DNA of 64,000 bases from positions 16,373 to 80,372 of IMG/VR virus record IMGVR_UViG_3300028887_000103. One strand, given 5' to 3'. The notes beneath the pieces are model-generated. The model saw only the letters and a program-made list of their open reading frames with translations. It was not told the DNA's origin and searched no databases. The first letter of the stretch is position 1, and every line of letters begins with the position of its first letter. The translations under genes were made by a program, and so were the position numbers. The DNA comes from a virus. Its lineage: Duplodnaviria; Caudoviricetes. This document shows, one piece after another, positions 46,904 to 63,971 of this stretch.

Positions 46904-47398
46904 ATGCAAGAGAAGAAATATACTGCTCAAGATATTGAGGAATTAAAAAAGAAAGACCCTAAAGAATTAACTGCTAAAGAAAAAGGTTTGATAAATCTAC
47001 GACCAAACAAGCCAGGTGAAACTGGTGACAAACATCTAGGAGGAAGAAAGAAGGGTACTCCAAATTGGTCAACCCATTTCAAAAGATTGATGGGCGATGA
47101 ACAGTTCTTAAATACTATTATCAGTGCTCTACCTCAACAGTGGGAAGGAGTAGTTGATAAATATCCTGCCAGCGTGATAGCGGCTGGGCTGATTACTACT
47201 GCCACTCAACAGATTGCAAAAAGTGTCGTGGAGGGGAAACCAGTTGACGAACAAACACTACGAATAATAGATAGAATTTCAAAGATTGGATATGGAGATG
47301 AAAGTAGAGTAACGCTGAACACAGAAGAAGGCTTCTTTGATAAAGTGAACTTCACTTTCAATGTGGTAGAGGACAGAGAGCAACCAGAGGAATCCTAG
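46904..47398 (+). CDS. Terminase small subunit (putative)
   Basis: NLRPNKPGETGD..GGRKKGTPN motif; directly upstream of TerL. Confidence 0.7.
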   Translation: MQEKKYTAQDIEELKKKDPKELTAKEKGLINLRPNKPGETGDKHLGGRKKGTPNWSTHFKRLMGDEQFLNTIISALPQQWEGVVDKYPASVIAAGLITTATQQIAKSVVEGKPVDEQTLRIIDRISKIGYGDESRVTLNTEEGFFDKVNFTFNVVEDREQPEES

Positions 47399-48819
47399 TG
47401 GATATAAGTAAGAAGCAAAGACAATTTCTACAACTGCTGGAAGACCCTACCATTAACGAACTTCTGATTGGAGGAGCAGGTGGAGGTGCCAAGAGTTTCA
47501 GTCTAGGGATGGGAGCAACTCTTTTGGCTAGAAAGTATCCAGGGGTTAGAATCTTTATGGGAAGAAAAACCCTAAAAAGTCTTAAGCAATCTACTGTCAA
47601 TACTCTACTTACAAAGGTGTTCCCATTTCTCGGAATAAGTGGCAATGATTATGCTATCCACTTCCAAGATATGACGCTAGATTATAAGAATGGTTCAAAG
47701 ATAATTTTTGGCGAATTGGATACAGTCCCGTCCGACCCAGATTTTTCTAGGATTGGCTCTACTGAATACGATATAGCAATCGTAGATGAGGCAGGTGAGA
47801 TAACCTTACAAGCAAAAAATGCTATCAAAACTCGTATTGGTCGTGGTATCCTGGCTAATTATGGAGTGCCGGGGAAGTTGATAATATCGGCTAACCCTAG
47901 CACCAACTTTTTGTTCTCTGAATACTATGAGCCATACGAAAGACAGGGTGGGGGTGGTTTTCAGAAATGGCAAATCGGTCATACGACTGTTTACGAGGGA
48001 ACAGAGAAGGAAAAACGATTGCCGTCATATCGGGGGTTCTTAAGAATGGGTGCTTACGATAACCCTTTCTTGCCACAAGCATACATTGACAATCTTAAGA
48101 CTCTTCCAGATAGGGAAAGAAGAAGAATTCTTGACGGGGATTGGCATTATGCTGATGATGAAAGTTCGCTGTTTAGAAGTGGTTTGCTAGATAAGGCTAC
48201 CATCTGGGAGTTACCAGAAAGCGATGAAAATGAGTGTTTTATCGGGGTTGACCTTTCCGATTCGGGTAAAGATAAGACTATATTCAGTTTGATAAAAAAT
48301 GGCATACTCGTAAACCAGAAGGCTTCTAGCGTTCAGATGAACTGGGAAAAAGAATCTAAACTTCCAATGGGTAGATTGATAACAGATGAACTAGTAGAGT
48401 TTGCCCAGAGAAATGGGATTGACCAGCGTCTAGCAAGTCGTATAGCAGTAGAAATTAACGGTGTGGGTGCTAGTGTTCGTGACTTCTTACGGGAAAGAGG
48501 TTGGCATATTACAGAATACACTGCAACTCATAAGTCTAGGAGTGAAAATTATTACAATCTGATGCTTGATATGGACGCAGGAGACATAAAGATATATCAC
48601 GAAATAAATGACTTGGACGGCTTAAGAAGAGAATTGTCTGCTCATTCCTACGAGATGAACAACCAAGAGCCAAGCGTAGTGAAAAAGGAAAAGATTAAAC
48701 TAACAATCGGGCATTCACCTGACCGTGCAGATAGTTTTGCTATCGCTAACTTTGCTAGAAGGATGGCCGAGCATCCAGAATTGAGTCCAAGAACTAATCG
48801 CAATCGCTTGATTTTCTAG
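47398..48819 (+). CDS. Terminase large subunit
   Basis: GGAGGGAKS Walker A, IVDEA Walker B, SANP coupling motif, IGVDLS RNase-H nuclease Asp, SPDRADS. Confidence 0.95.
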   Translation: MDISKKQRQFLQLLEDPTINELLIGGAGGGAKSFSLGMGATLLARKYPGVRIFMGRKTLKSLKQSTVNTLLTKVFPFLGISGNDYAIHFQDMTLDYKNGSKIIFGELDTVPSDPDFSRIGSTEYDIAIVDEAGEITLQAKNAIKTRIGRGILANYGVPGKLIISANPSTNFLFSEYYEPYERQGGGGFQKWQIGHTTVYEGTEKEKRLPSYRGFLRMGAYDNPFLPQAYIDNLKTLPDRERRRILDGDWHYADDESSLFRSGLLDKATIWELPESDENECFIGVDLSDSGKDKTIFSLIKNGILVNQKASSVQMNWEKESKLPMGRLITDELVEFAQRNGIDQRLASRIAVEINGVGASVRDFLRERGWHITEYTATHKSRSENYYNLMLDMDAGDIKIYHEINDLDGLRRELSAHSYEMNNQEPSVVKKEKIKLTIGHSPDRADSFAIANFARRMAEHPELSPRTNRNRLIF

Positions 48820-51477: not shown

Positions 51478-52413
51478 ATGAGTTTACCACAAAGATATGG
51501 AGTAGATAAGAAAATCAATTCTATGGAAGGCTTATCTGCGTATGAAAATGGAGGAAAGGGGAGTGGAAACTTCGGTCACGAAGGCCGTCCAGGTTTAGTA
51601 GGGGGTAGTGGCGGAAGAGGAGTAAGTGCCACTAGTTTTCACGAGTCTAGACAAAGAGTAGGTTCGGTTGAAAAAGAGGCGAAAGAGGCTGAAAGGCTTA
51701 AACGAGAGGAAGAGGCTTATTCAGAAGTTATGAATCCAACCAGAAAGTTAGATGACGAAACGCTTGAGATGGGGCGTGAGGCTGTTAACAGTGCGATGGA
51801 TACTGCTGATGCTAAACTCCGTTCGGGAAAAATACAACCAACGGTAGATGGCAAACCTTTTGCACCGTGGCGAAGAGAATTGAAAGAAAGTGGACAGACG
51901 TTAGCAACCCCGCTAGAAGGGGACACAGACAATTCTGTCATCTCGTCTGTAATGGGTCAGTTATCAGATGGGATTTGGGAAAATTCTCCTGCTATGGAAT
52001 CCTACTGGAGAATGTGCGAACCATTCAAAGCGGATGATGGAAAAATATATATGAAAGTAAGCAAGAAACTTGATTATGTAGATTATACTGACCATCGTGG
52101 TGTTAGACACTGGAAAAACAATAAATATGCAAATCTGACTAATGCTGGAGTTAGAGATTTCTGGGGTAAAAAGGTGAAACAGGTAGTAGATACAGAGCGT
52201 AGGGATTCCAAGCATTCTTCAATATTCAAGGGGAATGAGGATTATTCTTGGCGACCAGATAATAATACTAGGCTTCAATATATGCACTCAACTAAAGAAG
52301 GTGCTAAAAATCCAACAGTAGGGGATGCTTATAGAGTTTGGGCAAAACTTGTTGCACCCAAGACCGCCAAGTTAAATCGCAACCCATTCGATTATAGAGA
52401 GGACAATTACTAG
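51478..52413 (+). CDS. Tag-bearing hypothetical protein (one NGGKGSGNFGH tag), putative capsid cargo
   Basis: Tag at 51547-51612 near the N-terminus. Confidence 0.7.
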   Translation: MSLPQRYGVDKKINSMEGLSAYENGGKGSGNFGHEGRPGLVGGSGGRGVSATSFHESRQRVGSVEKEAKEAERLKREEEAYSEVMNPTRKLDDETLEMGREAVNSAMDTADAKLRSGKIQPTVDGKPFAPWRRELKESGQTLATPLEGDTDNSVISSVMGQLSDGIWENSPAMESYWRMCEPFKADDGKIYMKVSKKLDYVDYTDHRGVRHWKNNKYANLTNAGVRDFWGKKVKQVVDTERRDSKHSSIFKGNEDYSWRPDNNTRLQYMHSTKEGAKNPTVGDAYRVWAKLVAPKTAKLNRNPFDYREDNY

Positions 52414-52414
52414 A

Positions 52415-55414
52415 ATGAAAAAAGAAATCTACAATAAACTTAAAAAAAAGGTGGACAGGTTAGAGTTGCTCATCAATGGGGGTAAAGGTTCTGGTAACTT
52501 CGGTCATAGCGGGCGACCTGGAGAAGTAGGTGGTAGTGGAGATGGTGCAGGTGCCTCAGAGGGTGGCGCTGACAGACTGCAAGGTCCAGCAAAAACTAGA
52601 GAAGAATATGTCTATAAGAAAGCGAGTGAAAAATGCCAAGGTGATGCGTCTGATGTATATGCGTCACTGAGCGAACACGCTGAGTGGATTGCTGATGATG
52701 GCTCTTTTGCTGAAGGCTATAATGCTGATGACTATTGGAAATTAGCAGATAGACTGGGGGTTCGGGGTGATAAATTGGGTGAGCAGAGTAGAGTATATAC
52801 ACAGCAAGACTTAGTGGAAGGGTTCAAAAGGCTCGTAAAAGAGGTTGAACCTTATGGGTTGCTAGATGGCTCTAGTTCAAATGATAAACTGGATGAGTTT
52901 TTGGGCACTTATGACTTTGACCGACGGAATGGTCTTAACGGGAGAGTGTTTGAAAATGGCGGGAAAGGTTCTGGCAATTTCGGTCACGCTGGCCGTCCGG
53001 GAGAAGTAGGTGGTAGTGGTAGAGGGGTTAAGGCAAGTTCGCTTCATAGTAAAGGAGAGACTTCTACCAGCTCAGAGGAAAAAGAGAGGTCAAAAGCGTT
53101 ACAAGCATCTTTTGAATCTGCCGCGCTTGAAAGTCAATTAAGAGATAAAAGATTTGAGTTAAAGAAGCGGGGTCTGTTTGATTATTATGACTATGAAGAT
53201 ATGAGAATGGACGAGTTAGTTGAAGATGGGGCTACTCCTGTAGATTTAGCTAACCAGAAACTTATTGATTCTATACGCCGAGAGTATGATGAAAAGACGC
53301 AGGCTTTGAAAGATGAAATAGAGGATTTAGAAAAACAGGTTAGGGCTAAGTATAAAGTAGTGGATGATTATCTGGAAAAATATGGCAAGAAGAATAGTTT
53401 CGTCACTAATGGTGGTAAGGGGTCTGGGAATTTCGGACATTCAGGACGACCTGGGGAAGTAGGTGGGTCTGGCAAAGGTTTTAGTGCTGGAGAAAAAGTT
53501 GAAGTTTCGGCAGGAATCTTCGGAAGTTATGAGGCAAAGATTGTCAAAAAACTTAAAGATAGTGAAAAACCTGTCTTTTCGGAAGAAGGAGAAGATTATT
53601 ATGAGGTTTCTAGAACTTCTCACGGTTCAGAAGTCAAAGGAATAGTGAAGAGTTCCGATATTAAGAAAAAGGGTGCGAACGAAAAAGGTAAGAAAGAAGC
53701 AAAAACCCAGACGGTTTCTTTGAAGGGTAAATCTCTTTATGAAAAAGTGCATATGATTGAGGCTGGAGATGAAGTTCACATCACACCGAAAGATAATCTG
53801 CCAAACTTTGACAGAAAGATTAAGGTTGATTATATTCAAGATGGCACCATTCATTACGGTAGTTCAGAAACAAGCGATGGTTATACTTATCCTGCTTGGG
53901 CAATTAAAGACATCACAAAGATTATAAGAAAGAAAAAGAATTCAATCTACGCTGAAGTGTCCAGAAGGCTTGACAAGATTGAAAAAATGTTAAATGGTGG
54001 AAAAGGTTCAGGTAACTTCGGGCATTCTGGGAGGCCAGGAGAAGTAGGAGGCAGTGGAAATGGTAAAGGTAACACAAAGATTGCAGAATTGGAATCTAAA
54101 ATTGCTCAAGTCGAACAAGATTATGCAGACAACCGTCGGACAAAAATTGATATGCTAAAGACCAAGAGGGCACTAATGGAAGAGTTGTCCCAAGCGAGGT
54201 TAGAGGAGGCTTCGGCAAAAAGGAAAGAAGAAAAGGGGAAGGAATGGTCTATTCCTGTTTCAGATAAATCAAAGGAATGGGAAAGGTCGAAAAATTACAA
54301 GATAGAGTATTGCGACTCTGAAGCATTGGAAAATTTCAAAGATGAATTCGAAGGGTTAAGCAATGAGGACGCCTTTGAAGGGCTTAAATCTATACTCGAA
54401 ACATTGCCAAAAGATTTTGATACTAATGTTACGGCGAAGTTAGGTTTATCTGCTGGCAATGGGACAGTGGGTAGAATGCCGGCTAAAGGTTCTAGTGTTT
54501 CTAGACAAGTTGCTGGGGATTATCTGCTAGCATCAATGGCAAAGATGCATAGCCGAAGAGATTTGAGTCTTGACAGAACTTCGGATAAAAGAAGGTTTGA
54601 AGCATTTAGGCAAGTTATCGATTCACCTGCTGGGACATATTTTGATAGCGATAAATTATTCGATGATACGACATATCTTCGTGACACAAAAAAGAATTCA
54701 ACAATAGTCAATGGGGGTAAGGGCAGTGGCAACTTCGGACACGCTGGCAGACCTGGTGAGGTTGGTGGCTCAAGTAAAGATGGAGGGGGGATGAACCCAA
54801 ACACCAAGATTGCGAGGGATTTAGCCAAACAAAAAGAGTATATTGAAAAAGCCAAGCAAGTGACTAAAGACATTGAGGACAGAATTGGTCAAAAGATGAA
54901 GGAAGGGGAAACCTACACGGCTTTTGATGAAGCGAAATTTAGTAGGTTCAAGTTCTTCCACGGTGAAGATGGAACTGAATATACCTACGATAAGATTGCT
55001 GATATGATTACCAAGACAAATCCGAAGACGGGCGACCAAGAAGTTGTTACCAAGCAAAAGAAGGATTATGGTTCGGAAAGAAGTGGAGTTAGCAAGAGAG
55101 ATGGACATCAAATAGCTAGTGAGTTTGCTGATTTATCGGCAGAATTAGAAACAGCGAGAACCAACTTGAAAATGTTGAAAGAGGATAAAGGGAAAGCGTA
55201 TAAAGACCTATCTGGAAGAAATACATTTATGGATAGAAGTTCTGAAATTAGTAGGTCATTACATTACGCAGAGGCATTAGGTAAGAGTAAAATGTCTAAA
55301 GAGACCAAAAAGTTGGTTAAAGAGATGGAAAAAGAATTACGCTCCATCCGAGATGAATATGATAAATTAGGGACTGATAAATACTTTGACCCAGATTTGA
55401 ATCACGAGAATTAG
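52415..55414 (+). CDS. Tag-punctuated polyprotein-like protein (five tags), putative capsid cargo
   Basis: Tags start at 52475, 52955, 53408, 53993 and 54710, separating unrelated segments. Confidence 0.75.
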   Translation: MKKEIYNKLKKKVDRLELLINGGKGSGNFGHSGRPGEVGGSGDGAGASEGGADRLQGPAKTREEYVYKKASEKCQGDASDVYASLSEHAEWIADDGSFAEGYNADDYWKLADRLGVRGDKLGEQSRVYTQQDLVEGFKRLVKEVEPYGLLDGSSSNDKLDEFLGTYDFDRRNGLNGRVFENGGKGSGNFGHAGRPGEVGGSGRGVKASSLHSKGETSTSSEEKERSKALQASFESAALESQLRDKRFELKKRGLFDYYDYEDMRMDELVEDGATPVDLANQKLIDSIRREYDEKTQALKDEIEDLEKQVRAKYKVVDDYLEKYGKKNSFVTNGGKGSGNFGHSGRPGEVGGSGKGFSAGEKVEVSAGIFGSYEAKIVKKLKDSEKPVFSEEGEDYYEVSRTSHGSEVKGIVKSSDIKKKGANEKGKKEAKTQTVSLKGKSLYEKVHMIEAGDEVHITPKDNLPNFDRKIKVDYIQDGTIHYGSSETSDGYTYPAWAIKDITKIIRKKKNSIYAEVSRRLDKIEKMLNGGKGSGNFGHSGRPGEVGGSGNGKGNTKIAELESKIAQVEQDYADNRRTKIDMLKTKRALMEELSQARLEEASAKRKEEKGKEWSIPVSDKSKEWERSKNYKIEYCDSEALENFKDEFEGLSNEDAFEGLKSILETLPKDFDTNVTAKLGLSAGNGTVGRMPAKGSSVSRQVAGDYLLASMAKMHSRRDLSLDRTSDKRRFEAFRQVIDSPAGTYFDSDKLFDDTTYLRDTKKNSTIVNGGKGSGNFGHAGRPGEVGGSSKDGGGMNPNTKIARDLAKQKEYIEKAKQVTKDIEDRIGQKMKEGETYTAFDEAKFSRFKFFHGEDGTEYTYDKIADMITKTNPKTGDQEVVTKQKKDYGSERSGVSKRDGHQIASEFADLSAELETARTNLKMLKEDKGKAYKDLSGRNTFMDRSSEISRSLHYAEALGKSKMSKETKKLVKEMEKELRSIRDEYDKLGTDKYFDPDLNHEN

Positions 55415-58582: not shown

Positions 58583-59146
58583 ATGAAACAACCCACTTGC
58601 AAAATCTGTGGCTCTCATTCGCACTATACTTATATGTGCTTCCAGAACCCTAAAAGAAAAGCGGCTCTAAAACGCAAATATAGCGAGTTTAAGGCAGGGA
58701 AAGTTCCGAAGAGGGATAAGTTATTAAGCAATGAAAAAAGTCTTGACAGAAAGCGTTTGATACTTGAATTGGATAAGTATTGCTCGTTATATGTGAGGCT
58801 TAAGGCAAGCAATAAATATGGGGTATTGAGTTGCTACACTTGTGGAAAAAGAATACCGTGGAAGACAGCCCATTGCTGTCATTTTATTTCTCGAAGATTT
58901 GGTGGCACTAGATTTGATTTTGACAATCTTCGTGCTGGCTGTGAAAACTGCAATGTCGCTTTACACGGGAACTTGGAAGTGTATAGAAAAAACTTGGTGA
59001 GAGAGATAGGTGAGAAGGCAGTTGATAATCTTGAGCAGAGGAAAAATCAGAAGATATCAACACCTGATTTAGAAACTCTTTTGGAAGAGACTAAACAAAA
59101 ATACAAAAATCTAATAGCAGAGAAAAAGGCAGAACAGATAAAATAG
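58583..59146 (+). CDS. ninG: NinG/Rap-like recombination endonuclease
   Basis: CYTCG, HCCHFISRR..GTRFDFDN...GCENCN motifs. Confidence 0.8.
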   Translation: MKQPTCKICGSHSHYTYMCFQNPKRKAALKRKYSEFKAGKVPKRDKLLSNEKSLDRKRLILELDKYCSLYVRLKASNKYGVLSCYTCGKRIPWKTAHCCHFISRRFGGTRFDFDNLRAGCENCNVALHGNLEVYRKNLVREIGEKAVDNLEQRKNQKISTPDLETLLEETKQKYKNLIAEKKAEQIK

Positions 59147-59207: not shown

Positions 59208-62200
59208 ATGGCACTCAGAGATACGTTCTTGAATATGCTTGGCGTAGAGACTCAAGAAGTTCAAAAAACAAGCAATGGAGCAATAAGGTCCGCTAGAGAC
59301 TTTCTCAGAAATGGAAACCGTGAAAGATTATATCCTACTTGGTCAGATATTAAGATGTCTGATTCGGATATGTATCGTGGTTACTCCTACGCTGTGATAC
59401 AAAAACGAGGAAATAAGGTTGCCTCACTTGCGAAAAATAACCTTAAAACTTGGGCAAATCAAGAGGTCGTTGACGAGTTTCAAAAGAAAAATGAAACTGT
59501 GATGCACCCCTATCTAAAACTAATTGAAGATTCTACCAAGTTCACAGAAAAACAATTTTGGAAAAACATTTCTATCTATCTAGATTTGGCAGGTAGGTAT
59601 TACTTGGGAGTGGTTCGTAACACCGTCAAACCGTTCAATCCAAAACTTCCAGTTATTACAACCGACCCAACCGAGTTCGTGATGCTTAACCCTTACGAAA
59701 TTCGTAGAGTGGTTGACAAAAACGGGTTGGTGGCAGGTTATATTGAAAGGAAGAAAGATGGCAGATATAGGGAATGGCCGGTTCATCAGATTATTGAATT
59801 GCGTGAATTAAACCCATTCGACCCAGAGAATAGCCAATGGGCTATGACTGACGCTGCTAAAAATGCTGTCTATACAATCAACCAGAGTGGCGATTATACA
59901 AGGCAGTCTCTCAATGGCAATATAGACGCACCTGGAATTATTACGACTGATGTCCTATTAAATGATGAAGACTTTGCTAACTTCAAATCGAGAGTCACTC
60001 AACATACGAAGGGTGAACCCCTGTTTGGTAATGGCACAGGTGCTATCAAATGGGATTCAATGCAGATTGATTTAGACAAGGCCGCTCTACTAGATATTAA
60101 CGAAATTAACAGAACTGAATTGTTCGCTGTATCTGGGACAAGTAAAACTTCTCTAGGTATTGAGCAATCAGGGACGACAAGGGAAACAGCGAGAGTTCAG
60201 AGTGAGCAGTTTATTTCTGATACTGCCCAACCACGGCTAGAAGACATCGTGGATTTCTTGAACTTGGACTATAAAAAGTATTACAACCGTGAGTATAAAA
60301 AGACTGGCTACAGCATTGAGGTGGAAAGTGCTGTGGGTAAAGATTATGATACAGAACAAAAAGCAACAGCGTTAAAACAAAGTCAATTCCAATTGGCAAT
60401 GCAACTTATTCAGGCAGGCTATACTACTCAAAGTGCTTATCAGTTTGCTGAAGGTGAGATTGATTTTGCTGACTTGGAACTAGAAAAGGGCATTGATAAA
60501 CCGAAGAATCCAGACCAACCAGAAGAGCCCGACGAGAGTGCCTCTAATCCGCAAAATATACCACCTGACAGCGGTTCTGGTGGTGGGAATGATAAAAGTA
60601 TCGTGTCGGAAGAAGAAAGTGGTTCAAACGAGAATCTGGAGGACCTGAATGGACTTGAACCACACAATGATTTAGTAGAAAATGGTGGCAAGGGAAGTGG
60701 TAACTTTGGACACGAAGGACGGCCGGGGCTAGTAGGGGGAAGCGGAGATGGTGGCTTAACCTCTTTTGAAGAAGAAATCTCTGCTATTGATAATCCAGAT
60801 ATTCTTTACAAAAAACAAGAAAGTCTAGTGACTACTGAAGTTGTTAGCTGTTTGGAGAAAGATAGCGATTCTCTTACGGGAGAGGAAAAAGACGTTTTGA
60901 AAGAGTTTTATGACAAAACTAATCTTTTGAGAAAAAAGTTGTTTAAGTTGGAGTGGTCAGATATAGAAAAGGCAGATAAAAAAATCTCCGAGTGGATATC
61001 TGGGGCCCTAGACTGGGAATTTAGGGATATTGATTTTGACCCAGTAGATATTAGACTGTCTAAATCCACGGTTCAAGGGATGTTAGATAAAGAATCTGAG
61101 TTAATTGCTTATCGTATTCAAGCCACGGATAGGATGGAGAAAAGCAAAGGCTCCTCGTTCAGTCTATCAGAAACTTTTTCCGAATCTTCTCCAGATTCAG
61201 AGACCCCTTATGTTTTTGCTCAGAAAGTAACTAAAGAAAATACTATTTTAACCCCGAACATAGTTCAAGCCGGCTACGGTTATGAGCTTGGCCCCAATTG
61301 GCAACACGAGATTGTGCTTTCGAATGATAAAGAGTTAATGCCGATAAATAACTCTGTGGAGGGTGAGAAGTGCGACCCTTTAACACGGAATGGAGGGAAA
61401 GGCTCAGGAAACTTTGGGCATAGTGGAAGACCTGGAGAAGTCGGAGGAAGTGGTAATGGTTCTGCCACAGATTTTCAGAATGAACTTGATAATATAGAGT
61501 CTTACCATATTCCAGAAGCAACTAAAGCAAAACTAAGCGATTTACAAAAAATCAATACTTACAATAAGATAGAAGAATATCTTGCTAGCAAAGGTATTGA
61601 GGTTGATACTGATGCCGAATCTTTAAAAGGTGAAAGAAAAGATGAAGTCATTTCCTCTCCTGCCGATACTTTTGTTAGGTTAGCAATCGGAATAGAGGCT
61701 TATCAGGATACTTTTGGTTCAGATGCTTTAAGTTCTTTGAAGAAGGTCAAGTTTTATGACAATGATGAAGATTCTCAAGCCGCTTACTATTATTCTGAAA
61801 TAGGAGAAAAAGAGCCAAAAGAAGGGCAAATAAGTTTTCGTCAATGGGGTAATACAGGCAAAACTATATTTCACGAGTTAGCTCACGCCTTTCAAGATTC
61901 ACATAAAAAATCTGGAGAAGATGCTGTAACCTACTCCGATAGGATGGTGAAAGAGGCAGGTTTGAGTGAAAAATCTGGGTCTTATATGGGAGCGAGTCAG
62001 AGTGGAAATGGAAAAGGGTTACAAGCAGAAAGGTTTGCTGATGCTTTCGCTAAGGGTTTCGCTAGTGGAAATAAGGAAGGACTTGACTTCATAGAAAGAG
62101 TAGCTCAGATTGAGAAAAAGAAAAATCACTGCACCTGTGAACACGACCATAAGGTTGAAACTTTTATTAACGAGGTGGCACAGGATGACGGCAAGGTAGT

Positions 62201-63971
62201 AGATAAGGCTTACAAGGAGTTTCTACAAGAAGTCCGAGATATTGAAAAAGAAACGATTGATGCTTCTGTCAGAAAAGTGGAGGTTAACGCTTTTGAAATC
62301 TCTGATATTATCGGGCCGAAGAAGCGTAAAACTCTTACCGAGAAATTGAAAAACGCATTACATAAATACTGGTGGCTAATCTTCCCACTATTTGCTAATA
62401 ATTCAATGTCTAAGCGTAATGAGGAGTTCGGTAAGGATATTGGGTTCGTGTTTAGCAACGAACTACAAGCAGGAGTGGATGACAATGCTCTAAGGGTTGC
62501 TGAAGGGCATATGGAAACTATCTTAAATGATATTCTAGGTGCGAGCAATCGGGCTTACACTAATATCTTAGAGGAGGCTGCTGCTGAAATCATAATAAAT
62601 GTCTATGATGATTCCCCGACGAAATGGGAAAAATACTTTGAGCATAAACCAACAATGGCTGAAGCCCTATCAAGTATCAGGAAGACAGATATTCTAGAGG
62701 AAAATCGTAAAATCTATGAAAAAGCGAATAAGATGGCTTTTGAAGGCTATAACCGACGGGATATAATCAAGGCAATCCGAGAGGAATATAATTATATCAG
62801 CGAAACAAGGGCTACCCTGATTGCTAGAAATGAAACCTCTAGGGCGTTTACTAGAAGTCAGTTTGAAGCAGATAAGCAATTCTTAAACAGCATTGGTAAA
62901 CTTGGTCAGGCTTACAAGGTTTGGTATTCAAGACGACCTGCTAACGAGCAAGATAAGATTTGCGACTTCTGCAATGAGATGATTCGTTCCTCCGAGGAAA
63001 ATCCAGTTCCTTTTGAAGAACCGTTCATCAAATATGGGGATTCAATGGAAGTAGTTGGTAATGATGGAAAATTAAAGATATTTACGGCTAACTACGAGGA
63101 TATAGAGGGAGGTTGTCTGCACCCGAATTGTATGTGTGGCTATCATTTAGTTTTCAAGAACGCATCGGGAGAGTTTATCAAGACTTTGAATGGTGGTTCT
63201 GGGTCAGGGAACTTTGGTCATAGCGGAAGACCCGGCGAGGTCGGTGGCAGTGGTAAAGGTGATATTACCACAGGGAAAGATTTGTTCAACGCTAAGATGA
63301 GTGATAAATTGGAAGCGTTTAGAAACTTAACTCCAGAAGAGCAGGCAGTATTTTGTGAAAAAGCGATGGAAATGGACTACTCGGATATGCCTCAAGATTT
63401 AGCCGATACCGACTTTCAAAGAATATCTTACGCTTTAGGAATCAAAGATAAACCAAAAACGGTTAGTGATGAAGAATTCAAAGAGTTAGTAGAGAGTGGA
63501 GAGATGGAATACTTCAGATGTGTCAAAGATTACTATAAATTGAGTTCTAAAGAGATTGCAGAGAGGCTCTCAACGGGTGAATATACTTATCAAGGTAACG
63601 GCGATTATTGTGATGGAACTTATTTTACACCAGATTGGGGAGCTATGACTGCATATTCTAATTCGGACAGTGACTCGGTTATTCGTAGCATAGTGGATAT
63701 AGATGCAAATATCTACTATACTGATGCTCGTGAGCCATTTGACGCTAAAATGCTTCATACAATGAGAATACTTGAGGAAAAGACTGGAATGAAGCAAAAT
63801 ACCTCTAGAGCCGTTGCTTTATTGGGCGCTGGATATGATGGGTGGAATTTCATAAGTGGGGGTGTTAACAAAGAATATCTCTGTATGTTGAATAGAAAAT
63901 ATCTAACTGTCAATAAAGACAATTACAGTCTTCAAAAATCGGATTATGAAAGGAGTGATGATGTGGAATAA
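59208..63971 (+). CDS. Portal protein fused to tag-delimited cargo domains and a MuF (phage head morphogenesis) domain
   Basis: N-terminal ~430 aa portal-like; three tags (60681, 61389, 63189); R-S-QxE ART-like domain; HELAH zincin; MuF motifs (RATLIARNET, CDFC, LHPNCMC); C-terminal ART-like domain. Confidence 0.8.
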   Translation: MALRDTFLNMLGVETQEVQKTSNGAIRSARDFLRNGNRERLYPTWSDIKMSDSDMYRGYSYAVIQKRGNKVASLAKNNLKTWANQEVVDEFQKKNETVMHPYLKLIEDSTKFTEKQFWKNISIYLDLAGRYYLGVVRNTVKPFNPKLPVITTDPTEFVMLNPYEIRRVVDKNGLVAGYIERKKDGRYREWPVHQIIELRELNPFDPENSQWAMTDAAKNAVYTINQSGDYTRQSLNGNIDAPGIITTDVLLNDEDFANFKSRVTQHTKGEPLFGNGTGAIKWDSMQIDLDKAALLDINEINRTELFAVSGTSKTSLGIEQSGTTRETARVQSEQFISDTAQPRLEDIVDFLNLDYKKYYNREYKKTGYSIEVESAVGKDYDTEQKATALKQSQFQLAMQLIQAGYTTQSAYQFAEGEIDFADLELEKGIDKPKNPDQPEEPDESASNPQNIPPDSGSGGGNDKSIVSEEESGSNENLEDLNGLEPHNDLVENGGKGSGNFGHEGRPGLVGGSGDGGLTSFEEEISAIDNPDILYKKQESLVTTEVVSCLEKDSDSLTGEEKDVLKEFYDKTNLLRKKLFKLEWSDIEKADKKISEWISGALDWEFRDIDFDPVDIRLSKSTVQGMLDKESELIAYRIQATDRMEKSKGSSFSLSETFSESSPDSETPYVFAQKVTKENTILTPNIVQAGYGYELGPNWQHEIVLSNDKELMPINNSVEGEKCDPLTRNGGKGSGNFGHSGRPGEVGGSGNGSATDFQNELDNIESYHIPEATKAKLSDLQKINTYNKIEEYLASKGIEVDTDAESLKGERKDEVISSPADTFVRLAIGIEAYQDTFGSDALSSLKKVKFYDNDEDSQAAYYYSEIGEKEPKEGQISFRQWGNTGKTIFHELAHAFQDSHKKSGEDAVTYSDRMVKEAGLSEKSGSYMGASQSGNGKGLQAERFADAFAKGFASGNKEGLDFIERVAQIEKKKNHCTCEHDHKVETFINEVAQDDGKVVDKAYKEFLQEVRDIEKETIDASVRKVEVNAFEISDIIGPKKRKTLTEKLKNALHKYWWLIFPLFANNSMSKRNEEFGKDIGFVFSNELQAGVDDNALRVAEGHMETILNDILGASNRAYTNILEEAAAEIIINVYDDSPTKWEKYFEHKPTMAEALSSIRKTDILEENRKIYEKANKMAFEGYNRRDIIKAIREEYNYISETRATLIARNETSRAFTRSQFEADKQFLNSIGKLGQAYKVWYSRRPANEQDKICDFCNEMIRSSEENPVPFEEPFIKYGDSMEVVGNDGKLKIFTANYEDIEGGCLHPNCMCGYHLVFKNASGEFIKTLNGGSGSGNFGHSGRPGEVGGSGKGDITTGKDLFNAKMSDKLEAFRNLTPEEQAVFCEKAMEMDYSDMPQDLADTDFQRISYALGIKDKPKTVSDEEFKELVESGEMEYFRCVKDYYKLSSKEIAERLSTGEYTYQGNGDYCDGTYFTPDWGAMTAYSNSDSDSVIRSIVDIDANIYYTDAREPFDAKMLHTMRILEEKTGMKQNTSRAVALLGAGYDGWNFISGGVNKEYLCMLNRKYLTVNKDNYSLQKSDYERSDDVE

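Follow-up and report, generated by a model that had tools for sequence, protein, structure and literature searches.

A phage portal–MuF fusion protein with tag-headed modules, probably a polyvalent virion protein

Introduction

How a tailed phage might carry several enzymes on a structural protein of its head, and free them for use in the host, is the question raised by an open reading frame (ORF) in the viral DNA analyzed here (IMG/VR record IMGVR_UViG_3300028887_000103). The stretch of 64,000 nucleotides, referred to below as the window, comprises bases 16,373–80,372 of a single 80,372-bp metagenome contig with overlapping ends (a circular assembly). The ORF runs uninterrupted from position 59,208 to 63,971 of the window on the plus strand and encodes a chain of 1587 amino acids, about 178 kDa, plus a stop codon. 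From the sequence alone, an original prediction had read it as a portal protein fused to a MuF domain and to three candidate enzyme domains, the latter delimited by a short repeated peptide (the tag).

Polyvalent proteins and proteins fused to MuF are regarded as the weapons that a phage delivers first. In a survey of the polyvalent class (Iyer 2017, J Bacteriol; PMC5512222), such proteins were found to be encoded among the virion genes and fused to MuF or portal proteins, and it was proposed that they are processed into units and delivered with the DNA. Their packaging, cutting, and release were left open, with the suggestion that processing is probably carried out by a metallopeptidase embedded in the chain; the survey defines no cleavage or delimiter motif and contains none of the terms “glycine”, “linker”, or “conserved motif”. 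Here, we report a computational analysis of the 1587-aa protein, its tags, and its relatives. We conclude that it is probably a polyvalent virion protein, whose capsid cargo would be freed at the tags and injected with the DNA to modify the host.

Results

Portal, MuF, and cargo modules share one uninterrupted chain

From the N terminus, the protein consists of a portal domain, a linker, a tag, module A, a second tag, a region with an HExxH motif that runs straight into the MuF domain with no intervening tag, a third tag, and module C. This order, with tags at the module boundaries and cargo on both sides of MuF, was as originally predicted. A search of 5.8 billion proteins yielded 119 further proteins of 874–2216 aa (P0002–P0120; the 1587-aa protein is P0001) from ENA, Logan, JGI, and NCBI assemblies, the top 115 of which were portal fusions, with a portal identity to the 1587-aa protein of 46–91%. 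Portal and MuF lay within one chain in 112 of the 119, and the stretches between them and past MuF varied from protein to protein. Precomputed Pfam matches in these variable parts include ADPrib_exo_Tox, 2′,5′ RNA ligase (2H), and NUDIX.

The portal domain (residues 1–430; window 59,208–60,497, plus strand, as are all features of this ORF) matched Phage_portal (PF04860) from profile position 15 to 304 of 321 over residues 75–391 (E = 3.4e−16; 59.8 bits, cut-off 39.1), and it was also matched by PHROG 2662, “portal protein” (E = 4e−19). With 113 homologues it shared 50–91% identity. The linker that follows (residues 431–491; 60,498–60,680) is of low complexity and proline-rich and differs among homologues; with 15 D/E, 3 K/R, and 8 P in the 59 residues 431–489, it is acidic, as had been noted. 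For the MuF domain (SPP1 gp7-like, head morphogenesis; residues ~968–1327, terminating in ...HPNCMCGYHLVFKNASGEFIKTL; 62,109–63,188), the match of the isolated segment to Phage_Mu_F (PF04233) covered profile positions 13–55 only (E = 0.009; 17.2 bits, below the cut-off of 29.6), and that to PHROG 2468, “head morphogenesis”, was weak (E = 0.001). The MuF core was 64–93% identical in the 112 homologues, and one of them with the same 326-aa core (P0041) has a precomputed PF04233 match. Portal and MuF share one ORF, which is preceded by terminase-like and NinG/HNH genes and followed by genes for the capsid and tail. We take the domain to be MuF.

A long ORF from a metagenome could have arisen by an assembly or sequencing error that joined separate portal, cargo, and MuF genes, and the contig is indeed a metagenome assembly with overlapping ends. 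Beyond this, nothing was found in favor of such an error. Three relatives, re-read from their own contigs of ~80 kb, speak against it, and ORFs of 874–2216 aa joining portal and MuF occurred in more than 110 proteins from independent assemblies (ENA, Logan, JGI, and NCBI). Since so many independent ORFs share the fusion, we give an artefact, which the original prediction had named as a possible refutation, practically no weight.

A glycine-rich tag heads the modules and is conserved as a peptide

The three tags of the portal fusion, at residues 492–512 (tag 1, NGGKGSGNFGHEGRPGLVGGS; 60,681–60,743), 728–748 (tag 2; 61,389–61,451), and 1328–1348 (tag 3; 63,189–63,251), are 21 residues long, rich in glycine, and read NGG(K/S)GSGNFGH(E/S)GRPG(L/E)VGGS. 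In total, the genome carries 12 copies in five proteins, nine of which head modules in four proteins other than the portal fusion; the consensus at the modules of this phage is NGGxGSGNFGHxGRPGxVGGS or, with more positions spelled out, NGGKGSGNFGHxGRPGEVGGS. Mean identity among the 12 copies was 0.91 for protein and 0.70 for nucleotides. At identical fourfold-degenerate Gly, Pro, and Val codons, the third positions agreed in 0.28 of pairs, which is about random, and the serines of the tag were written with both the AGY and the TCN codon families. Because protein identity is high while synonymous sites are randomized, purifying selection acts on the tag peptide and not on its DNA. The same data led us to reject the tag as a DNA recombination site within this genome, as the copies are not conserved at the DNA level. 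Universal cleavage at an Asn-Gly bond formed by the initial Asn of NGG was also rejected, for D, K, A, or L stands there in other lineages.

Across the portal family, 122 tag copies shared 14 invariant positions, and on sequence grounds the recurrence of the tag is confirmed not to be a matter of chance. The tag was never C-terminal in this family: at least 92 aa followed it, typically a single domain of 170–375 aa. The 115 tag-led modules fell into 30 clusters. Modules are shuffled at the tags, as seen for module A and for the ART of the downstream 266-aa gene (both described below).

A second, shorter motif, GNP(Y/N)HDxxG(R/K)F...GG (class II), fills the same slots as the tag described above (class I). 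The slot after MuF may hold a class I tag, a degenerate tag, or a class II motif; class II also heads stand-alone cargo (at residue ~27–32) in a relative whose portal is untagged, and both classes can co-occur in one phage. Carriers of class II are P0073, P0083, P0085, P0100–P0106, and P0113, as well as two ORFs of the relative L033 (L033:6434-7303 and L033:13035-14495). The core common to both classes is N-x-x-H...G-(R/K)-(P/F).

The tag is widespread among tailed phages

In bacterial and archaeal assemblies taken as one genome per species, the exact pattern was present at 29 loci. Prophages of many phyla thus carry the tag, and the Oxalobacter paraformigenes HOxBLS locus (L014) belongs to a cultivable one. 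The 29 loci include Clostridia (several families), Eggerthellaceae, Oxalobacter, Sulfuricaulis, Terriglobus, Dehalococcoidia, Elusimicrobiales, Omnitrophota, Chitinivibrionales, and one Methanomassiliicoccales bin. The tag copy in the last of these (L012, CALKWP010000078.1) lies on a 4.3-kb contig and could stem from an archaeal virus or from a binning error. Architectures elsewhere comprised Phage_portal_3, which is another portal family, with NUDIX, tag, and Ntox50 behind it; portal_3, tag, and DUF4258; PBECR2, tag, and ART-PolyVal ... helicase; and, in a Dehalococcoidia metagenome-assembled genome (L018:3041-5734), MuF, a PT-HINT/intein-like domain, tag, and a module of ~240 aa. On portal or MuF proteins elsewhere, the modules headed by the tag were ART-PolyVal, Zeta, Fic, NUDIX-Ntox50, DUF4258, and PBECR2. 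The tag thus crosses portal families (PF04860/PF06381), capsid families (PF05065/PF09950), and differing head-gene sets. The genes adjoining tagged loci encoded MuF, DUF2213, cement proteins, and PF09950 capsids, with DUF2213 and PF09950 capsids dominating.

IMG/VR held at least 173 confirmed tag loci. The 59 loci that were kept and had a complete tagged ORF contributed 108 ORFs carrying 150 tags in all, with a maximum of 7 in one protein and of 13 at one locus; in none of these ORFs was the tag C-terminal, at least 63 aa following it, and the tagged modules include ART-PolyVal, Zeta toxin, Fic, and GNAT. Polyproteins without a portal were also seen, such as L040:1047-5930 with 7 tags and L061:4837-8466 with 5, whose modules include ART-PolyVal, Fic, and Zeta toxin.

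The tag appears to be undescribed so far. No model in Pfam, PHROGs, or NCBIfam matched it, and no PDB chain contains it. Its motif strings were found nowhere in the searched literature, although a description in figures or in other journals is possible, and the class II string gave only chance matches to antibody framework sequences. Neither of the two key surveys (PMC5512222 and PMC5576092) mentions a delimiter, linker, or cleavage motif.

Module C is predicted to have an ADP-ribosyltransferase fold

Module C (residues 1349–1587; 63,252–63,968) had ten close or moderate relatives in the family, every one of them C-terminal and preceded by a tag. An AlphaFold2 (AF2) model built on the alignment of these relatives had a predicted local distance difference test score (pLDDT) of 84 and a predicted template modeling score (pTM) of 0.84. 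Among the Foldseek matches listed for this model, most were enzymes with the ADP-ribosyltransferase (ART) fold (exotoxin A, diphtheria toxin, ParT, RES, and PARPs), with weak E-values (0.009–0.1) and a probability of up to 0.99. R1437 and G-T1471, the latter in G-T1471-YFT, were invariant in 11 sequences; E1556 was retained in the seven close relatives and P0048, with S in its place in P0035 and P0024 and D in P0018. No Pfam ART model matched module C, the Pfam ART-PolyVal model did not match the 1587-aa protein, and a search for stand-alone relatives of module C (129–412 aa) found none. We accept the ART fold, as the original prediction had it, and an ADP-ribosyltransferase activity is plausible.

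The same fold had been proposed for module A (residues 513–727; 60,744–61,388), which has a helical N-terminal half and a C-terminal half that holds the invariant residues. Its relatives are P0002 within the family and three distant proteins found with HMMER among 1.84 billion representative proteins, all of them tag-flanked; the module lies after MuF in P0002 and before MuF in the 1587-aa protein. Y635-R636, S650, and Q699-x-E701 (YR..S..QxE) were invariant in the five sequences, a pattern consistent with an ART of the R-S-E type. Other comparisons did not bear the proposal out: hhalign against two genuine ART module families gave a probability below 1%, the AF2 model was poor (pLDDT 61, and below 50 over module positions 120–211), neither Foldseek nor VIA-wide returned a meaningful match, no profile match was found, and the ESM Atlas gave nothing above 0.84. 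Module A is possibly an R-S-E ART.

The region before MuF (residues 749–967; 61,452–62,108) carries HELAH at residues 889–893 (window 61,872–61,886), which is kept in the closest homologue, P0116, along with the downstream ..QDS..EDAV..; the two regions were 39.6% identical over 202 aa. Of the zincin domain originally predicted, the motif is confirmed, and we call the region zincin-like on the basis of this motif. The Pfam WLM match was weak (E = 0.047; 14.2 bits, below the cut-off of 26), and the zincin and MuF segment had no match among PDB sequences. Within the set, 34 proteins have an HExxH region, which belongs to one of several sequence types and either immediately precedes MuF or forms a C-terminal module; this count includes P0121 and P0123 and excludes two proteins with only a tag-adjacent HEIS-H string.

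The neighboring genes encode further tagged cargo

Because the contig ends overlap, the genes that follow the portal gene sit at the contig start, where the coordinates given below with the prefix L001 are in genome numbering, outside the window. The gene order is a terminase-like gene (window 47,398–48,819; weak match), a 311-aa tagged protein, a 999-aa protein with five tags, small ORFs, a NinG/HNH nuclease gene directly upstream of the portal gene (58,583–59,146), the portal fusion, a 266-aa tagged protein, and a 649-aa protein with two tags (L001:885-2834). Next come fibre-repeat and leucine-rich-repeat proteins, an HNH gene, a 705-aa capsid protein, connector-sized ORFs, a tape-measure-sized ORF (~1900 aa), and Dit. 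This is the head–tail module of a siphovirus, and the virus is an uncultured siphophage of ~80 kb. A tblastn search of 50,697 deposited phage genomes with the whole 1587-aa protein gave no match, indicating a lineage known only from metagenomes. The NinG/HNH gene keeps its slot directly before the portal gene in three relatives (L031, L032, and L033).

In the stand-alone cargo proteins, the tag lies at residue ~25–37 behind a conserved leader. The 311-aa protein (51,478–52,413, plus strand) has an N-terminal leader and one tag (window 51,547), and the 999-aa protein (52,415–55,414, plus strand) has tags at window 52,475, 52,955, 53,408, 53,993, and 54,710. Directly before the tag, many otherwise unrelated cargo proteins carry a leader helix, MKKxxYxxLxxK(V/I)xxLExxL, seen at window 52,415–52,480, L031:6731, L033:7594, and L033:15552, and in P0117, P0118, P0120, and P0122. 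A second leader type, MALPS(R/K)YG(I/V)DKKINSMEGLSAYE, is characteristic of orthologues of the 311-aa protein. In the 649-aa protein, a stretch reading ...QEGRHRAEGA... lies inside the module after the second tag.

The ORF that follows the portal fusion, cut by the window end, had been named as one to examine for an immunity function. It starts at 63,946, overlapping the end of the portal ORF, runs on the plus strand to 64,000, and resumes at genome 95–895 (L001). The resulting 266-aa protein consists of a leader, a tag, and a predicted R-S-E ART (LYRG / STS / ELE), which hhalign matched to the ADPrib_exo_Tox module of P0006 with a probability of 95% and which is also the C-terminal module of other portals, e.g., P0011, P0013, P0014, and P0002. 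Judged by these domains, the gene is cargo and not an immunity gene.

This result bears on whether the protein is a MuF-type polymorphic toxin for interbacterial competition, like Bxa and Apk2, that needs cognate immunity genes and is not an early effector. In published MuF toxins (Jamet 2017, PMC5576092; Bxa, PMC11699363; Apk2), MuF is encoded next to the portal and is followed by a variable C-terminal enzyme, often an ART, a layout that the MuF domain, here fused to the portal, and module C share. The module repertoires are highly polymorphic, too, and one tagged locus elsewhere has an ADP-ribosylglycohydrolase nearby. However, MuF toxins have a single C-terminal toxin and adjacent immunity genes, whereas here cargo lies on both sides of a portal-fused MuF and in four other proteins, which fits polyvalent effectors better. 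The next two genes are more tagged cargo (the 266-aa tag–ART and 649-aa two-tag proteins), and, as the original prediction had noted for immunity genes, no ADP-ribosyl hydrolase or known immunity family was present among the scanned neighbors, a check that did not extend to two 71-aa ORFs (genome 2838–3053 and 3061–3276). We consider the toxin reading quite improbable.

The 705-aa capsid protein (L001:8642-10759) is a three-part fusion of an N-terminal domain of 145 residues, an acidic scaffold-like stretch, and an HK97-fold capsid domain, the C-terminal half matching the HK97-type capsid family PF05065 (E = 3e−5). Its N-terminal domain is highly conserved, with H61 and S109/S113 invariant, and has at least 499 relatives of 387–1234 aa, nearly all of the 120 listed ones measuring 695–779 aa. 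It is possibly a prohead protease of the HK97 type, as the spacing of the conserved residues suggests; no protease match was found in Pfam, in a PDB sequence search, or in a profile search.

Discussion

Since the first 430 residues are a portal subunit, everything past residue 430 would hang into the capsid interior: the acidic linker, module A (possibly an ART), the HExxH–MuF segment, and the C-terminal ART-fold enzyme. Known tailed phages have 12 portal subunits per capsid, and in this rare case the portal itself bears ~1150 residues of cargo per subunit. In the mechanism that we propose, the cargo would first be brought into the procapsid by its fusion to portal or MuF or, if it stands alone, by an N-terminal leader helix. 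The modules would then be cut free at the tag, and the freed enzymes would exit with the DNA and, right at the onset of infection, modify targets in the host, for example by ADP-ribosylation. That the tag is the processing site seems to us rather likely, because a portal-fused enzyme reaches the host only if it is cut and the tag is the sole conserved element at every junction. The cut could be made by a phage prohead protease, the embedded zincin, the tag itself, or a host enzyme.

Several observations weigh against this proposal. Peptidase_S78 was encoded in only 1 of 79 genes adjoining tagged genes of other genomes, and the 705-aa capsid protein, with its putative protease domain, has no tag; a canonical prohead protease is accordingly a poor fit as the common partner. 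Because the tag spans portal, capsid, and head-gene families, any one lineage-specific protease is hard to reconcile with it. In two relatives with 4–6 tags (L031 and L032), none of the tagged proteins within 10 kb contains an HExxH motif; the embedded zincin is therefore not a required partner, and its candidacy as the tag protease is weakened. In L018, a self-cleaving HINT domain directly precedes the tag; the tag may therefore act other than, or beyond, cleavage, and an addressing or threading role in addition is conceivable. Finally, no meaningful fold match was obtained for module A, and the zincin is a putative one.

Some of these points would be met if the tag cut itself, its N-x-x-H...G-(R/K)-(P/F) core (GNFGH.GRPG in class I; GNPYHD..GRF in class II) serving as an asparagine-cyclization site with no dedicated protease. 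A parallel is the N↓PTH loop of the FlhB/YscU export-switch proteins. The extreme conservation of the tag across phyla and head-assembly systems is more easily explained by a chemistry of its own than by a partner that co-evolves; class II motifs stand in class I positions with N-P-x-H kept, the capsid–scaffold protein is untagged, and the zincin is sometimes missing. However, a Gly-rich peptide of 21 residues is unlikely to hold the strained turn of known Asn-lyases, and no PDB chain containing the tag is available for comparison. Constitutive cutting would, moreover, lose the N-terminal leaders and the portal fusion before assembly. Cutting by way of the invariant Asn and His is an appealing idea; we consider self-cleavage without a protease unlikely.

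We see a similarly small chance that the tag is not a cleavage site but an address or handling element, i.e., a capsid docking peptide, a DNA hook with a GRP core that would tether cargo to the packaged genome, or a flexible leader to initiate threading into the channel of portal and tail. Cargo-loading peptides of encapsulins and AT-hooks are parallels. Such a role would suit the fixed N-terminal distance of the tag in stand-alone cargo, its position always N-terminal to a module, and its place after the self-cleaving HINT domain in L018. Under an address role alone, portal-fused modules, already inside the capsid, would stay attached and could not act in the host, and the flanks of GRP are not basic, unlike those of true AT-hooks. 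Processing at the tag remains the reading that we prefer. More tentatively, and at somewhat less than even odds in our judgment, class I (GGxGSGNFGHxGRPGxxGGS) and class II (GNP[YN]HDxxGRF) together may be a portable, near-universal tailed-phage signal that marks capsid cargo and its release point and is possibly self-cleaving.

Among known systems, the polyvalent proteins come closest. As in these, the chain carries several unrelated domains (ART, putative zincin metallopeptidase, and others) among the virion genes of a portal–terminase phage; with module C, the HExxH region, and module A on one portal–MuF chain, it has the two or more unrelated effector-type domains that define the class. 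The earlier view that this arrangement goes beyond the known single-toxin pattern was overstated, as multi-enzyme portal and MuF fusions are a published class (PMC5512222). Unlike the proteins of that survey, every module here, those of stand-alone genes included, is headed by an invariant 21-residue tag. The cassette borders of polymorphic toxins (VENN of CdiA, DPxGL of Rhs, and PT-HINT; PMC3482391) are likewise short elements between a constant part and swappable cassettes and are sometimes release sites; the tag differs from them in sequence, in its many copies per protein and genome, and in its N-terminal position in separate genes. The pre-ejectosome protein of cyanophage A4 (PDB 9k3a chain B) showed 14% sequence identity and is not portal-fused; no ART domain or activity is described for it (PMC12002296).

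Internal proteins are a further point of comparison. The internal proteins of T4 (IPI–III and Alt, an ART) enter the prohead by a short N-terminal leader, are cut by gp21, and are injected with the DNA. Their signal is ~10 residues long and lineage-specific, and the protease that cleaves it at (L/I)xE is known; the tag, by comparison, has 21 residues, is Gly-rich, crosses phyla and head types, and occurs internally in polyproteins as well. The 1587-aa protein would work in a similar way to these internal proteins but has no sequence in common with them. Capsid targeting and the internal proteins of T4 have been reviewed (PMC9026906). In sum, the multi-enzyme portal–MuF fusion belongs to the published polyvalent theme and overlaps the MuF toxins, and the tag system may be the part that is new.

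To the question of how such cargo is packaged, cut, and released, the 1587-aa protein, its four sister proteins, and their relatives give a testable answer: one invariant peptide at the module boundaries. If the tag is the cut site, the cargo sets of phages could be read directly from their genomes, the fast exchange of anti-host enzymes would be explained, and a usable handle for loading chosen proteins into phage capsids would be at hand. If the two classes are indeed a portable cargo signal, any enzyme could join the injected set, as a separate gene or as a portal or MuF fusion, and polyvalent proteins would gain their missing processing code.

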